Source: Eledone cirrhosa
Taxonomy: Eukaryota
Assembly: GCA_964016885.1 (NCBI GenBank)
Contig: OZ024740.1
Location: forward strand, 169,322,001-169,386,000
Length of the DNA: 64,000 nucleotides
Direction: 5' to 3'
Shown piece by piece: positions 44,288-56,115 of the stretch. A program made the position numbers and the translations under genes. The stretch's first letter is position 1, and each line of letters begins with the position of its first letter. Under the pieces are notes generated by a model. The model had not been told where the DNA came from, did not search any database, and saw nothing but the letters and a program-made list of their open reading frames with translations.

Positions 44288-47200
44288 TTCCATAACGGCC
44301 AGAGAGAGAAGGATGTGTGAGAGGGAGATAGAAAGAGAGGAGTGTGTGTGACGGTTTGTAACATCGAGAAAAAATTATTTCATAATGATTAATTTCGAAG
44401 TCACAAACTTCGATTTTATAATCTTATAGACTTTTGCACTAACAAATTCCATGACGGCCATAAAGAGAGAGAGCGTTCCTTTTACACACTTCTTAACTCT
44501 CCCCCTTCCACAACACGACGTTATGGGATCCATAACGGCCAGAGAGAAGGATGTGTGAGAGGGAGATAGAAAGAGAGGAGAGAGAGAGAGAGTAAAATAA
44601 AGAAAGAGAGGAGTGTGTGTGACGCGAATATGATAATTACAGCGTTTATAATTTTAACTTATTTATTACACTTCTTAACTCTCCCCCTTCCACAACGTCA
44701 TGTCTTGGGATTGTGTGCGTATGTGTGTGTGTGTATGTGTGTGTGTTTGTGTGTGTATGTGTGTGTATGTGTTTGTGTGTGTGTACGTGCGTATGTGTGT
44801 GCGTGTGTGCATGTGTGCGTGTATGTGTATAAATGTGTTAATTGTAAGAAATATCAGACGATACTTTAGCGATAAATACAGTCTTTATAATTTTAACTTA
44901 TTTATTACACTTCTTAATTCTCCCCCTTCCACAACGTCACGTCTTGGGATTGTATGTGTATGTGTGTGTGTGTATGTGTGTGTGTTTGTGTGTATGTGTG
45001 TGTATGTTTGTGTGTGTATGTGTTTGTGTGTGTGTGTACGTGCGTATGTGTGTGCGTGTGTGCATGTGTGTGTATAAATGTGTTAATTGTAAGAAATAAC
45101 AGACGATACTTTTTATTCAAAAAATTAAACGCTAAAGCAATTTTGATGTCATAAATCATATTTTCAAAGTGAAAATCGTCATTTCTTTAATACTTATTCA
45201 GAGGTTGAAATATATTTACTGTTTGTCTTCTGGTTTTTAATCAAATATTTACACATTGCTCAACCGACACTGCTAAACACGATATTAGCAAAATTATTTT
45301 GTAAGTATGAAAATCTAATATATAATTCCCGTGTAGAAAAAGCAGATGATAAAATATACTTTTTCGTCTTGCTTATTATTACAAAAATTTACACATTGTA
45401 CACAACTATTTATTTCTTTTAATTGATTTGTATCAGCTTTATTCAATTACATATTTTCGGTAGAATGCCTCGAAAAAGAAAGAGTAACATTGGAAAAAAA
45501 ACAAAAAACTTTTGCTTTGCGCAAAGAGCGCGCAAGCGAAACAGAAGAACAATGTGTGCTACGGCGTGCTCGCAATGCTGCTTCTACCTCGATCGCCAGA
45601 GCATTACAAACAACTCAACAAGTAGAACTCCGGCGTGCTCACAATGCTGCCTCTACTTTGAACATCAGAGCATTACAGAAAGCTGAACAAGCAGAACTCC
45701 GGCGTGCTCGCAATGCTGCTTCTAATTCCAATAGCCGTGCTTTAGAGACCGTTGACCAAAGGGCAACAAGGCTTGCGGCTGATTCTCAACGGAATATGCG
45801 TACTTATGTCTTTCCGAGGGATTCTTCCTGTTACTGGTCTAAGAAAGGTTTTCAATACAACCCCCAAGAGGACTACGCATCCCATCCACATATCATCATT
45901 GGTAGTATGTCAACTGTTTTCGTCCATTGTAATGCAATGAGGTGGCCAGCGGAATCTACCGGTATATGTTGCTCCAATGGAACGGTTACATTGCCTTATT
46001 TACAAGTCGGTGCCGAACCTTTGAATTCTCTGCTGCTTGGAGACCACCCTGATTCTAAACACTTTTTCAGAAATATAAGAGCCTACAATTCGGCTTTCCA
46101 AATGACAAGCTTTGGTCATACAACAATAAAAAGATGGGAATTATATGCCCACATTTAAAGTGCAAAGCCAAATTTACCATCAAATAGGATCACTTATTCC
46201 ACAAGATGGCAAAGAACACAGTTTTCTCCAGATCTACTTTATGGGCAACGGATCTGAAGAAATTGCACGAAGGGCTTCAGTTGCTAAAGGAACGACACCT
46301 TCTCTTCTGCAGCCCCTTCAATATATGCTTCATTCCATAAACCCGTACATCACCATTTTCAAAACTGCTTTACAACGTAGAGATGCTAACAACAATCAAT
46401 ACAAGGTTGTCATTCGAAATGACCGCGCTCCACCAGGGCAGCATCAGGGTTGCTTTAATAGACCCCAAACCGATGAAGTTGCAGTGATTATAACACGCCC
46501 TAATGAGAGCGCTTCAAACCGTGATATTGTTATTGAATGGCAGGACTCGCATCTTCAAAAAATAAATGAACTTCATCCCGCATATGATGCTCTCCAGTAT
46601 CCATTGCTGTTCCCCTTTGGCGACGATGGCTACCGCATTGATTTGCAAAAGTGTAATCCTGTAAGTTTAATGCATCTTACACCAGGGAAAGCCATTTCAC
46701 AAATGGAATTTTATGCATTTAGACTTATGTTTCGCAAAAACGACGTCAACATTCTGCATAGAACACGGATGCTCCTCAATCAATACTGTGTAGACATATT
46801 TGCTAAGATTGACACTGAACGCCTCCAATGGATAAGACATCATCAAAAGGAACTCCGTTCAGAAGAATACGGCAATCTACGTGACGAAGTAAACCGAAAT
46901 GATCAGGCTAATGCTTCGGATGTTGGGCTTTCTGTCATTCTCCCATCATCATACACTGGAGGCCCCCGTTACATGCATGAAAAAAATGCAGGATGCTCTG
47001 ACCTATGTCCATCATTGTGGCCGTCATGATCTTTTTATCCCCTTTACAGGCAATCCAAAATGGTTTGACATCCAGTCTCATTTACTGTTTGTCTTTCGGT
47101 TATTAATAAAAAATATTACATTGTTCAACCGACACGGCTAACGATACATTTCTCTATGTTCACATTTTAATGACACATATCTGTAAATAAAACTTGCTCT

Positions 47201-48966: not shown

Positions 48967-49090
48967 AAGTTTTAGTATAGATGTGATTTTACAGGACTAG
49001 AATTGTTTCATTCTTTAGAAATCATCAGGATTCCTGATGATTTCTAAAGAATGAAACAGTTCTAGTCCTGTAGAATCTCATCTATATTAA

Positions 49091-49094
<4 letters not shown>
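48967..49094. repeat. Fold-back of a PLE pseudo-LTR centred at 49031, just 5' of a CUGAUGA...GAAA core
   Basis: Two ~64-bp inverted arms with a 1-nt spacer. Confidence 0.75.
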
Positions 49095-49149
<55 letters not shown>

Positions 49150-49209
49150 CCAAGGCTCTGATACCATCAACACTATACACACAGAGCTGGCATATCTAAG
49201 AACTGACTA

Positions 49210-49265
49210 ACTGCCTGATGAGGTCATAGCCATTCAATGGCTATCATCGAAATATATATAGCAGT
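49210..49265 (+). ncRNA. Type I minimal hammerhead ribozyme in a solo pseudo-LTR fragment
   Basis: ACUGC-CUGAUGA-GGUCAUAGCCAU UCA AUGGCUAUCAUC-GAAA-UAUAUA-UA-GCAGU. Confidence 0.88.
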
Positions 49266-49442
49266 AAATAAAGGATTATGAGTTCATGCAATTGACTTAT
49301 GTTTCGTCACTATATATATATATATATATATAGTAATAATACAAAATTTGAAGACTAAAATCCAAAGAGGGCTCGATAAGGATAAATATATATCAGATAT
49401 ATAAGAACCGTAGAGCAAATATTTATTAATATAACAGATTAA

Positions 49443-49493: not shown

Positions 49494-49540
49494 AAAAAAG
49501 TCAATCTGTGAACGCAGAAGTAAATATTAAAAAAAACGTT

Positions 49541-52500
49541 GATTTACTTTATGGGGAACGGACCTGAAGAAACTGCACGAAGAGCTTCAGTTGCTAAAGG
49601 AACAATATCTTTTCTTCTGCAGCCCTTTCAATATATGCTTCATACCATAAACCCCTACGTCACCATTTTCAAAACTGCTTTTCAGCGTAGAGATGCTAAC
49701 ACCAATCAATTCAAGGTTGTTATTCGAGGTGATCGCGCTCCACCAGGGCAGCATCTGGGTTCCTTTAACAGACCCCAAACCGATGAAGTTGCGGTGCTTA
49801 TAACAAGTCCTAATGAGAGTGCTTCAAACCGTGATATTGTTCTTGAATGGCAGGACTGGCGTCTTCAAAAAATAAATGAACTTCATCCTGCATATGATGC
49901 CCTCCAATATCCATTACTGTTCCCCTTTGGCGACGATGGCTACCGCATTGACTTGCCAAAGTGTAATCCGGTAACTTTAATGCATCTTCAACCACGGAAA
50001 ACCATTTCACAAATGGAATTTTATGCATTTAGGCTTATGGTTCGCAAAAACGACATCAACATTCTGCATAGAACACGGATGCTCCTCAATCAATACTGTG
50101 TAGACGTATTTGCTAAGGTAACTATTTCTTAGTTTATGATTTCGTTCAGAAAATGTCCTTAGCCAGTTCACTCAATATTTATCACAACAATTTCTTCCTT
50201 TTCCAGATTGACACTGAACACCTCCAATGGATAAGACACCATCAAAAGGAACTGCGTTCAGAAGAATACGGCCATCTACGTGACGAAGTCAACCGAAATG
50301 ATCACGTTATTGCTTCGGACGTTGGGCTTTCTGTCATTCTCCGATCGTCATACACTGGAGTCCCCGTTACATGCATGAACACATGTAGGATGCTCTCATC
50401 TATGTCCGCCATTGTAGCCGTCCTCATCTTTTTATCACCTTCACATGCAATCCAAAATGGTTTGACATCCAGTCTCACTTACTTCATGGCCAAAATCCTT
50501 CACACAGGCATGATATCACATCTAGAGTGTTTCACCTAAAGCTTATGAAAATGAACCTGCAGTTATTCACCTCAGCGTTCATTTGGAGAATGGTCAACGG
50601 GTGTATTTTAACCAAGAAAATATGCTTGACTGTGCAAGATAATCCCGAAGAACGACCCTTACCGGATTCTTTGAACTTTGTACTACTAACTCTCTTGCCA
50701 GAACACTTCTTTATGCGGAGTTGTCTACATTCTACACGCGGAATAAATCTTCAAAGAAGAAAGCGAGGACGCATTTCACAAAGGGATGCTTCAATGCGTG
50801 AGTCTGATGCCCTCTCAAGAGTGTACACAGTTCCCCTGCTCCATTCAGAATGCTTTCACTTTCTATTCTTTCGTCTTCTGTTGCACGTTGTCAAAGGTCC
50901 AACTTCCTTTGAAGACCTTCGTACCATCAATGGCCATATTTGTTCAACATTTAAAGAGGCCTGCTCCAAATTAGGCCTTCTCGACAGTGATGACCATTAT
51001 GACCACCCCCTCCATGAAGCATCAATGTTGCAGTCACCAATTGCTCTTCTTAAGCTTTTCGCCGTTATGCTGGTGTACTGCAGTCGTGGGAATCCACAGT
51101 CTTTCTGGGAGAAATATCGCGACAGCACGTGCTTAGACATCCTAATGCAATCTCGCTTCGCGTCCACACATGAATTTACAGTTTACACCTGAAATGTACA
51201 ACTGCGGTCTCATATTTCTAGAAGATATACTTATACTTTTGGAAATCGGTGGCCGTCCCTTGAAGAACTACTGTATGGAATCTCCTAAAAGAGAAAATGA
51301 GGCTGTTTGTAACCGCCCCCTACTAAGGGAGACCTGCTACGATGCTGCCAGGCTTCTGTCCTACGTTCAAGAAAGAGAAAAACTTTTGAATCTTGAACAA
51401 GCTGATATCTATACTTTTGTTTTGACCATGCTTGAAGACACCAGCGGTGGCATTCACTTCCTTGATGCGCCAGATAACACAGGAAAGATATTTCTCCTCA
51501 ACCTCCTTCTTGCCAAAGTTCGCCAACGTGGACAGATTGCCATTGCAATGGCGACTTCAGGAATACCAGCAACACTACTAGACAGTGGCAGAACAGCCCA
51601 TTCAACATTTAAGTTTCCCTTAACATCGGTCATGTTGAAAATCTGACCACCAATATAAAGAAGAATTCTGATGAGGCTGCTGTCTTTCAAAAATGCAAAT
51701 TGATTGTCTGGGACGAGGCAAAATGTTCCACAAGAATGCACTTGATGCAATCAATACAACGCTACAAGACCTGCGCTCCAACTCTAAACCGTTCGGTGGC
51801 GTCGTTCTGCTTCTTGCTGGGGATTTTCGTCAAACTCTTCCCATTGTCCCAAAAAGCCAACCAGTTGATGAAATAGATGCTTGCATTAAACATTCTCATC
51901 TTTGGCGCTTCGTCCAGTCGAGAAAGTTTACCATCAACATGCGATCGATTCTCCACCAACAAGACGGTGACAATTACTTTGCTTCAAAGTTATTGGATGT
52001 TGGTAATGGGAACTTACCAATCGACGTAAACGGTTTGGTTGACATAAGTACCATCAGTAACTACGTCTCCAGCCCTGAGGACATTTGCACAAGAGTTTAC
52101 CCCGACCTCTCAACAAATTACGTCAGTCATCAATGGATGTGTGAAAGGGCCGTCTTAGCTCCTACAAATGCCATCGTCCAAGCTCTTAACACAAGTCTGC
52201 TTCGTCAACTTCCTTCCCAAGAGCGATGTTATGCTTCGATTGATTCGATTACGGATCCGACGCAAGTAACGTTTTATCCAACAGAGTTTTTAAACTCACA
52301 AGAGCCATCGGGAATGCCACCGCATAAACTCTGCTTAAGACTTGGAAGTCCGATCATACTCTTGAGAAACTTGGAACCTCCTCGGCTTTGCAATGGCACA
52401 CGCTTGGTTATAACGCAAATGTTGGATGACGTTCTCGAGGCTACAATCATTACGGAAAAAGGCGCTGGCGACTGTTTTTATTTCCAGAGTTCCACTTATT

Positions 52501-52743
52501 CCAACTGACTGTGTCTTTCCGATGAAAAGAGTCCAATTCCCCATTCGATTAAGTTTTGCAATGACCATTAACGAAGCTCATGGGCAGTCACTAAAAGTGG
52601 TTGGGCTGGACCTCAGTACTCCATGCTTTTCACACGGACAACTGTATGTGGGATGTTCAAGAGTGGAAACTCGGCCAATCTCTATTACTACGCTCCCGGA
52701 AGATTGACAAAAAATGTGGTTTACAAGGCAGCCCTCCAATAGT
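49541..52743 (+). pseudogene. Helitron RepHel remnant: partial Rep + PIF1-family helicase, multiple frameshifts, intron at 50118-50206
   Basis: GPTSFEDLRT, LDAPDNTGKIF (decayed Walker A), [50 protein letters not shown]. Confidence 0.92.
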
Positions 52744-53303: not shown

Positions 53304-53588
53304 AAAATGGCGTAGACATACAATACAACAGGAGGAACATAATAGTACCACTGTTGATGTTCCAGATGTGCAACGAAAGAGCTTTGTTAGACTATATATA
53401 TGTGTTTATATCTATATTATATCTGTATTTTTGACCGTTGGTCAGTCAATGATAAACATTGACGACCAAATGAATTAACTGTGGAGATATAAAAGATACA
53501 GAAACGAAAACCAACCAAACAGTGAGTGTGTTCTGTTATTATTTCTGGCAATTATTACAACAATATGACCTTCCCCAAGTATAACGAT
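53301..53588 (+). mobile_element. Solo pseudo-LTR of the Naiad-type family
   Basis: Reverse-complement homolog of 26180-26475, with a decayed hammerhead-like CUGUUGA...GAAA at 53351-53378. Confidence 0.7.
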
Positions 53589-53939: not shown

Positions 53940-54030
<91 letters not shown>

Positions 54031-54032
<2 letters not shown>

Positions 54033-54228
54033 AGTTGTGGTAAGGAACCAGATGGACCATAACGAACCAGATGGGCCATAACGTACTCATTACTTAGGGT
54101 GGTAGAGTGGGTGATAGGAAAATGTATGACCCCGGCGGCAGAGCTCAAGCCGTTTCGACGGCTATTTCTGGACTGAAATAGCCGTCGAAACGGCTTTGCT
54201 CTGACGTTGGGGTCATACATTTTCCTAT
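54031..54228 (-). mobile_element. PLE pseudo-LTR fragment with fold-back
   Basis: Family of 25251-25400. Arms 54115-54168 and 54175-54228 invert inside ribozyme loop II. Confidence 0.75.
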
Positions 54229-54680
54229 ATATATATATATATATCAAAGGTATATATTGAGTTAAAAACGCAAAATAGTCTCTTACAATTAAATACCTCA
54301 AGGAAAGAGATTTTTCCGAGAGAGATAAACACAGATATAAACATATATGTGTTCAAATCGTAAGGGACCAGATTCGGTGAAAACAATACTAACTATGAAC
54401 AATAAGGTTTGCCAGACTCAATATAAAATAATAAATCAAGAATAAAAATACAAACCGATATTGGGCAACTGCCAGACACCCAGACAGCTTATGGTAGGTT
54501 GTTTCGCAATTTTAGCGATGGGAATAACCAATTTTCTTTGCTCATCAGTGGGTGTAAAATTAGTAAACCCTTCACTTCTAAGTATCTCAGAAGACTGAAT
54601 AGTGTGCGTATATAAAATAACGTATGACTTGAACACATATATGTATACATCTGTGTTTATCTCTCATTTATATTCAATTA

Positions 54681-54740: not shown

Positions 54741-54804
<64 letters not shown>

Positions 54805-54855
54805 ATGTGTACATATATATATATGTATATATGTGTGTGTATATGTATGTATTTG

Positions 54856-54892
<37 letters not shown>

Positions 54893-55109
54893 ATGAGGGG
54901 TATACAAATATATGTGTATACATATACATGTATATATAAACATATATTTTTCACAAGTATGTGAGATTGTATGTTGTCGACCTTAAGCAGTGTTACTCTA
55001 TGATTATGAGAGACAAAATAATCGAAATAATTAAATTGACACAATATCAGAGTTATGTAAAATATTATAAAAAGGAATAATAGACACAATATACCTATTT
55101 TTCCTTTCG

Positions 55110-55200
55110 TCCCGACTGTACAGTTTCGCTGGTCACTATGCAAGAATATTATATCATAGATATACAACATTGTTGTGAGGTAAGCCAGCTTATCAAGGGA
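55110..55200 (-). ncRNA. Hammerhead ribozyme, U3-A8 variant
   Basis: Inverted copy of 55923-56013; differences lie only inside loop II. Confidence 0.85.
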
Positions 55201-55922
55201 GCACCTCAGGGAAGAGCCCTAACTACATACGTCCGTAGCATGCGAGAAAATCTCAGAAAGGCGGAGGGAGACTCTATCACACGATACACCGGTCAAGAAA
55301 GGGGATTAATCCCTTGTAGCAGTGAAAATATCTCAGAAGGCGGAGGGAGACATTGATATGATACATAGGCTACAGAAGGGTGGTAAGGTTGACTAGAAGT
55401 GTATATAGTGTAATATTATAAAAAGGAATAATAGATACAATATACCTATTGTATCTATTATTCCTTTTTATAATATTTTACATAACTCTGATATTGTGTC
55501 AATTTAATTATTTCGATTATTTTGTCTCTCATAATCATAGAGCAACACTGGTTAAGGTCGACAACATACAATCTCACATACTTGTGAAAAATGTATGTTT
55601 ATATATACATGTATATGTATGTATACACATATATTTGTATACCTCTCATTATTGTCTCTAATTCCCTCACGGTAGAGTAACCACGGAAGTATAGTGACTG
55701 CTTTCAAGCAAACACTATATACACTTCTAGTCAACCTTACCACCCCTCTGTAGCCTCTGTATCATATCAATGTCTCCCTCCGCCTTCTGAGATATTTTCA
55801 CTGCTACAAGGGATTAATCCCCTTTCTTGACCGGTGTACCACGTGATAGAGTCTCCCTCCGCCTTTCTGAGATTTTCTCGCATGCTACGGACGTATGTAG
55901 TTAGGGCTCTTCCCTGAGGTGC

Positions 55923-56013
55923 TCCCTTGATAAGCTGGCTTACCTCACAACAATGTTACATATCTATGATATAACATTCTTGCATAGTGACCAGCGAAAC
56001 TGTACAGTCGGGA
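55923..56013 (+). ncRNA. Hammerhead ribozyme, U3-A8 variant; predicted cut after C56009
   Basis: UCCC-UUGAUAA-GCUGG...CCAGC-GAAA-CUGUACAG-UC-GGGA. Confidence 0.88.
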
Positions 56014-56057
56014 CGAAAGAAAAAATTGGTATATTGTATCTATTATTCCTTTTTATA

Positions 56058-56115
<58 letters not shown>

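Follow-up and report, generated by a model that had tools for sequence, protein, structure and literature searches.

The insertion at positions 54889-56065 raises the question of how a unit of 585 bp came to lie in simple (TA)n sequence as two head-to-head arms that begin at different points of the unit, and whether its template had no fixed ends, as an earlier note on this DNA had proposed, or was copied from preferred starting points. The insert is bounded on both sides by (TA)n tracts (a (TA)n-rich target flank on the left, 54744-54888, and a (TA)n target flank on the right, 56064-56112), and the positions of its ends are counted here in nt from the predicted ribozyme cut. The right arm (55447-56065, plus strand) consists of one 585-nt unit and a further 34 nt, in agreement with the period of 585 reported previously, with its inner end at +23 and its outer end at a site designated S1 (+55/56). 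The left arm (54889-55411, minus strand) contains 523 nt of the unit, with its inner end at +288 and its RNA-sense 3′ end pointing outward at a second site, S2 (+229). It aligns as the reverse complement of the doubled unit in a single run, from phase 264 to 585 and on to 205, and lacks unit phases 206-263 (58 nt); it does start at a different phase and read on beyond the position at which the right arm stops. The S2 position is read through within the right arm (55652-55653), where the sequence, on the 3′ side of a long hairpin, is predicted to be unpaired. The extra fragment noticed at the inversion junction is real and measures 39 nt (55412-55450, minus strand); it runs from +53 back to +15, starts at most 3 nt from S1 and is a 97% copy of left-arm positions 55061-55099. 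A 4-bp microhomology, TATT (55447-55450), connects it to the right arm, and together with the start of that arm it forms an imperfect palindrome of 66 bp (55412-55477).

The terminal redundancy of the right arm had been given as 31 bp; the redundancy is present, but the exact direct repeat spans 34 bp and encloses those 31 (copy 1, 55447-55480; copy 2, 56032-56065, ending at S1; both on the plus strand). Its length depends on the position of the inner end, and the right arm of a 591-bp homolog in the same stretch overshoots by 262 nt, which argues against treating the redundancy as a structural feature. A target-site duplication was rejected because one copy is internal to the insert and the left arm shows the same sequence in its unit context. 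Nor is the repeat the counterpart of a Penelope-like tail; the one-sided extension amounts to ~173 nt in the 585-bp insert and ~165 nt in the 591-bp insert. The longest ATG frame of the 585-bp unit is 97 aa and its G+C content is 0.38; none of its open reading frames encodes a telomerase-like RT with a GIY-YIG endonuclease, and repeat comparison found no long terminal direct repeats in the insert, hence no LTR layout. The two arms differ by 15 substitutions (12 of them transitions) and one 4-nt indel, a divergence by ageing of 3%. These differences, and the different phases at which the arms start, make it extremely unlikely that the arrangement is an assembly artefact produced by a fold-back read chimera, which would give a perfect mirror, although inverted repeats within long (TA)n tracts assemble poorly and the arms of the 591-bp insert are 100% identical.

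Each arm of the 585 locus carries one type I hammerhead, in the right arm at 55915-56013 (plus strand, predicted GUC cut after 56009) and in the left arm at 55110-55208 (minus strand, predicted cut 3′ of 55114). The core, UUGAUAA, has U3-A8 replacing C3-G8, and the other parts are a long (60-nt) stem II insert, GAAA, a palindromic stem III and a predicted 6-bp pseudoknot between loop I and loop II (UGAGGU/ACCUC(A/G)). Stem III is an 8-nt palindrome whose sequence differs between the 585 and 591 units. Both U3-A8 covariation of the core in nature and loop I/loop II pseudoknots have been described (PMC3088659); the U3-A8 core occurs in Schistosoma Penelope-like elements, and palindromic stem III is described as the mark of hammerheads acting as dimers (PMC4209133). 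Of nine predicted Xenopus dimers, eight failed to cleave (bioRxiv 10.64898/2026.07.22.740005). A descriptor scan of the window, i.e., the whole 64-kb stretch of DNA analysed, returned eight type I hammerhead-like sites, whereas 20 shuffles gave at most one each; it overlooked the copies of the 591-bp insert because of a bulge in stem II. The pattern shared by both units occurs at six sites in the window (two in the 585 locus and four in the 591-bp insert, one hammerhead per unit pass) and in 0 of 100 shuffles. Rfam gave no match in the window at the gathering threshold, and the 56 matches over the locus at E up to 10 included no ribozyme and none at gathering score. Covariation was assessed on a hand-drawn structure (stems I-III, the distal hairpin and the 6-bp pseudoknot) over an alignment of the two 585 arms with a single 591 copy: 75 of 78 cells are paired and five pairs are changed on both sides, a result as high in 3/500 shuffles, and slid-partner controls gave 28-44% pairing and no pair with a change on both sides. 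The compensatory changes are suggestive support for the hammerhead fold; the three rows represent really two lineages, hence no true probability attaches to the result. No two ribozymes stand in tandem on one strand of the 585 locus, each arm having one ribozyme and both arms crossing the unit junction; therefore, the locus could not release a monomer.

The comparator insert, with a unit of 591 bp, has a left arm of 1270 nt (31680-32949, minus strand) and a right arm of 853 nt (32950-33802, plus strand), comprising 2.15 antisense and 1.44 sense passes (3.6 in total). The passes are all letter-identical, for which reason the insertion is probably very recent; the arms cross four cut sites, and each arm matches a repeated single unit without any difference. 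This insert has the same U3-A8 ribozyme variant and consecutive head-to-tail units with a complete ribozyme. The 585-bp unit had been regarded as a second, diverged family with matching unit length, ribozyme type and upstream motifs, and it was advised to align the two consensus units as circles. The alignment, made from the cut, revealed homology over the entire unit, colinear round the whole circle (619 columns, 60.7% identity; 47.7% in 200 shuffles, alignment score z = 18.4). The matches in length, ribozyme and motifs thus stand and reflect descent, but the separation into two families does not: judging from this alignment, the 585 and 591 units are one lineage. The further suggestion that a unit length near 590 nt is constrained was not borne out, as the units are homologous and a net difference of ≤6 nt from the 26 indels between them fits chance (P = 0.18 under random signs). 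The upstream motifs, GGCGGAGGG, are present in both units and might have a DNA GC-box role; on the ribozyme strand they read CCCUCCGCC, two per unit, at 55260-55268 and 55339-55347 in the left arm (minus strand, sequence matches) and at 55776-55784 and 55855-55863 in the right arm (plus strand, predicted hairpin loops). The CCCUCCGCC motifs sit in or over predicted hairpin loops, the stems of which differ between the 585 and 591 units. Compared with 25 shuffles, the sense circles of the 585 and 591 units form more stable folds (z = -3.8 and -9.7); the antisense circles gave z of -4.3 and -1.0. The circles have 24 confident pairs in common, compared with 6.5 ± 4.7 (maximum 18) for 40 nulls in which the pattern of identity was preserved, although only one of the 24 is changed on both sides, which counts against the explanation preferred below.

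A comparison of the ends of the two inserts bears on whether the template was entered freely. The left outer end of the 591-bp insert is the homolog of S2 and the right one the homolog of S1; they lie at +239-245 and +77-80, respectively, ranges that reflect TA ambiguity, and the alignment of the units places +55 of the 585 unit at +81 and +229 at +243 of the 591 unit. If ends were uniform, two such matches would be expected about once in 1,000-2,000 cases by our own post hoc arithmetic. The start of the junction fragment at +53 is a third use of S1. Since the outer ends are homologous in both inserts and the fragment restarts at S1, the outer termini look fixed and the inner ends alone variable, in the two inserts considered, one per family (2/2). 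The inner ends lie at +288, +23 and +15 in the 585-bp insert and at +152 and +410 in the 591-bp insert. Two of these five are within 25 nt of the cut, a hint that inner ends might mark the ribozyme-cut 5′ end, and a hint only because both near-cut ends may be coupled by the palindrome. Selection of the outer ends by microhomology was rejected, because the register of the 585 outer ends with (TA)n extends over no more than 1-2 nt and 11 positions with a register of ≥5 nt were left unused. Both S1 and S2 lie shortly 3′ of a predicted hairpin, which for the 585 S1 is clear with the left-arm alleles only; in the circular ensemble, three of the four sites are predicted to be unpaired (0.6-0.9) and the 591 S1 to be paired (unpaired 0.2), the latter being a point against the explanation preferred below.

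These observations divide the earlier proposal of a template without fixed ends: no boundary exists at the end of the right arm, as it had stated, but the homologous outer ends do not agree with free circular permutation. A circular template without any preferred start, from which inserts arise as free permutations and outer ends match by chance or through A+T bias, would account for the variable inner ends and for the seamless read-through of the unit by the arms, and the sample comprises only two inserts. Such a template would explain neither the coincidence of both outer ends with those of a 61%-identical homolog nor the restart of the junction fragment at S1, nor the better TA microhomology sites left unused, and we regard this explanation as unlikely.

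We therefore prefer fixed starts, and the locus is probably a non-autonomous Penelope-type element (a non-LTR retrozyme), for which the layout and the ends suggest a Penelope-like enzyme starting at two fixed internal sites of a circular or multimeric template. Both 585 arms read through the ribozyme cut site, in support of a template that is circular or multimeric, and the letter-identical passes of the 591-bp insert are what a circle or a young multimer would produce; a circle copied by rolling reverse transcription, a young multimer left uncut and repeated jumps would fit equally well. Under the preferred reading, a transcript of tandem units would self-cleave, probably as a double hammerhead, and the cleaved RNA may be ligated into a circle. 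A Penelope-type RT-endonuclease would then nick both strands of the (TA)n target, with one target strand priming a cDNA at S1 (+55) and the opposite strand priming a second at S2 (+229). The S1 cDNA would extend over more than one unit, and the S2 cDNA would extend for 523 nt, jump back to S1 for 39 nt, and anneal by its 3′ end to the other cDNA via TATT, giving the central palindrome. The RT template jump that had been suggested for the junction is plausible; the start of the fragment, at +53, shows no exact microhomology. A fold-back (self-priming) has been proposed as the source of junction palindromes (PMC3846280), and this origin is possible for the 585 junction palindrome too.

The central 66-bp palindrome and the 4-bp microhomology are also typical of break repair, and the arms have aged by 3%, so a DNA-level origin, in which a satellite-like tandem was rearranged after insertion by fold-back repair, inverted duplication and deletion with the ribozyme as a passenger, was considered. 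Repair would not place outer ends at homologous sites, fused to (TA)n, in two families; moreover, the 591-bp insert has the same layout with letter-identical arms, and the RNA structure is conserved. This origin is accordingly very unlikely. Mobilisation of the unit by a LINE enzyme through L1-type twin priming was weighed as well. Elements with an AP endonuclease and LINE RT ORFs occur in the window, among them an apparently open frame of 1076 aa with AP endonuclease and RT domains (8065-11295). L1 twin priming likewise yields outward-facing 3′ ends and a central microhomology junction, both of which the present layout shares. In L1 twin priming, the direct arm is expected to begin near the internal priming point, but here it begins at +23 and not near +229; in addition, neither poly(A) nor a 3′ repeat is present, the two ends fall inside the unit, and the ribozyme type and the layout match Penelope-like elements. 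A LINE-driven origin is thus of very low probability.

A stricter form of the two-site reading can be put forward tentatively, and we give it only a small chance: a dimeric Penelope-type enzyme on one ribozyme-made RNA circle would nick both (TA)n strands and make two rolling-circle cDNAs from structure-defined sites 170 nt apart, one per strand, as an obligate step, perhaps gripping the circle via the twin CCUCCGCCU hairpin loops. If true, the tandem and inverted copies, the tail and the palindrome seen in Penelope-like insertions would be explained in one step, and the 585 and 591 units would be a minimal natural substrate. Two different ends were observed in all four twin-armed hammerhead inserts with placeable ends (4/4; offsets of ~70, 87, 165 and 173 nt), a count which excludes the 54243-54680 element and six further inverted repeats in the window.

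Among the other elements of the window, the truncated Hydra-like Penelope element at 39484-42748 has an inverted terminal arm and hammerheads at 39623 (minus strand) and 42696 (plus strand). Its ends lie ~52 and 139 nt past the cut, giving a one-sided extension of ~87 nt, longer than published tails, and its two-ended inverted layout, being the same as that of the 585 locus, was counted for the Penelope-type explanation. The element at 30707-31372 is twin-armed, lies in (TA)n and carries a minimal C3-G8 hammerhead with the cut at 30935 (minus strand); its ends lie at +228 and ~70 nt further, and a 40-nt copy of its right end sits at its centre, as in the 585 locus. Adjoining the 585 locus on the left, in the same TA tract system, is a hammerhead element with a short inverted piece (54243-54680; core at 54548, cut at 54483, minus strand). 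Two other hammerhead elements in the window are single-armed. The single-armed element at 17956-19658 has ~2.4 direct tandem units of 700-707 bp and both ends in TA; its hammerhead, on the minus strand, has a long stem II. A short hammerhead element lies between TA runs at 49147-49312; its 3′ end is 52 nt past the cut, an offset near the 52 and 55 nt of two other families.

ORF remnants in the window carry DKT, CxCX5C and RW(R), with R replacing K. The Hydra clade is described as (TA)n-targeting, with DKT and CxCX5C as diagnostics (PMC8557442), and the DKT/RWR/CxCX5C remnants appear close to these. Further Hydra-like ORF remnants were observed at 20300-21355 and at 1121-3440, the latter interrupted by a 3-kb (TA)n tract and having a hammerhead near its 3′ end (cut at 1159, minus strand). 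Another remnant, which has DKSG and a CxxxxCxxC finger, was read as Neptune-like (26183-29751, minus strand, frameshifted), with a solo 3′-end copy at 53307-53585; no hammerhead was found at the Neptune-like 3′ end. A protein atlas offered RT look-alikes and GIY-YIG (the latter for 31% of one cluster) for the window remnants, Pfam left seven Penelope-like stretches unnamed with a single weak RVT_1 hit, and a PDB sequence search with the RT remnant gave weak RT matches only (E 0.009). Local homology of the 585 and 591 units to 11 candidate stretches of the window, including Penelope-like 3′ regions, did not rise above shuffles; of 50 shuffles, the best score was equalled by two comparisons and slightly exceeded by one, these lying over AT-rich stretches. 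Matches that blastn gave between the unit and 834-909 and 49071-49169 were rejected on inspection as low-complexity TA. The window also contains an inverted pair in (TA)n around a second, nested inverted repeat (35090-36315), whose outer ends resemble tRNA-derived SINE heads pointing inward, and a short dispersed (TA)n-flanked family that is often palindromic (13448-13600, 19671-19811, 23886-24085, 25248-25370 and 54030-54228). Pieces at 10-446 plus 716-863 are 98-99% identical to 33881-34483, with their order swapped and microsatellite tracts separating them. The stretches at 45427-47086 and 49524-52508 we take to be two degraded Helitron-like Rep/helicase remnants. The LINE and Penelope-like content indicates an animal as host, and the load of microsatellites may point to a cephalopod.

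Beyond the window, a search of sequencing runs returned eight rows, five of which contain part of the 585 unit (0.10-0.46 of its words, none half or more); the rows with unit words come from two studies and two organism codes, no RNA run is listed among them, and none of the rows enters the evidence given here. A pattern scan for further families found none in viral contigs and none in prokaryotic genomes. Its six metagenome loci were dismissed as chance, because they have no pairing in stems I and II, no runs of TA and no homology to the unit (best E 0.008).

The origin of tandem and inverted Penelope-like insertions in microsatellites has been named an open matter (PMC8557442). A small protein-free unit with a young letter-identical relative and two start sites kept across 40% divergence provides a simple test template for it. 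Mobilisation of retrozymes by Penelope-like enzymes has so far been inferred from co-occurrence and sequence similarity, and the 585 and 591 inserts link the published internal-start mechanism to non-LTR retrozymes. Since the general layout is already known, the gain is mechanistic detail and not a new class. Neither start sites 165-175 nt apart nor the twin loops were described in the literature searched, which did not extend to supplements, Repbase, Dfam or subscription papers, and the 585/591 family, or tails of greater length, may have been recorded already.

A comparison with known systems places the locus close to several of them. Cercyon hammerheads of Schistosoma mansoni (Cervera and de la Peña 2014, PMC4209133) likewise have U3-A8, a helix I of 4-5 bp and a palindromic helix III, and their motifs occur in pairs on opposite strands 100-700 bp apart, compared with ~900 in the 585 locus; however, the Cercyon motifs are described as minimal, whereas the 585 hammerhead has the long stem II insert and the predicted loop I/loop II pseudoknot. 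For Poseidon of Anolis, it was reported that in vitro both strands are nicked and extended at A+T-rich DNA, and that reverse transcription initiates at two internal positions of the RNA that lack target homology and on which genomic ends fall (Frangieh et al. 2024, PMC11167929). The Poseidon start sites are described as adjacent, at one AC-rich stem-loop and with no strand difference (PMC11167929), unlike those of the 585 and 591 units, which are far apart, each 3′ of its own predicted hairpin, with one of each per insert.

Non-LTR retrozymes are described as non-coding hammerhead tandem units, proposed to be mobilised by Penelope-like elements via circular RNA (PMC7229834; bioRxiv 10.64898/2026.07.22.740005). 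The 585 locus resembles those of animals (Cervera and de la Peña 2020, PMC7229834; Li, Clavereau and Pollet) in its non-coding unit, of which the 591 homolog has complete copies in tandem, with one type I hammerhead each, a G+C content below 50%, a circular fold more stable than shuffles and the presence of Penelope-like elements in the same genome. Its unit length is within the 51-972 bp range of retrozymes (bioRxiv 10.64898/2026.07.22.740005) and exceeds the 170-400 nt circles seen by northern blot (PMC7229834; bioRxiv 10.64898/2026.07.22.740005). It differs from the retrozymes in the U3-A8 core, the 60-nt stem II insert and the predicted pseudoknot, and it shows head-to-head arms with two defined outer ends; insertion ends are not treated in the parts of these accounts that were consulted (PMC7229834; bioRxiv 10.64898/2026.07.22.740005). 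Published features of Penelope-like elements, in turn, include copies in tandem and in inverted orientation, palindromes at the junctions, a (TA)n bias and a one-sided tail of 30-40 bp, as long as the spacing between two RT start sites (PMC8557442; PMC3846280; PMC8969392). With the endonuclease-bearing ones (Arkhipova et al. 2013, PMC3846280; Craig et al. 2021, PMC8557442), the locus shares tandem and inverted truncated copies placed head to head, a one-sided extension, a palindrome at the inverted junction and a (TA)n target that conceals any target-site duplication; it differs from Penelope-like elements in that the unit has no ORF and the end offset is ~165-175 nt against 30-40 bp. Overall, the 585 locus resembles a Penelope-mobilised retrozyme in its sequence features, with a tail that departs from the published length.
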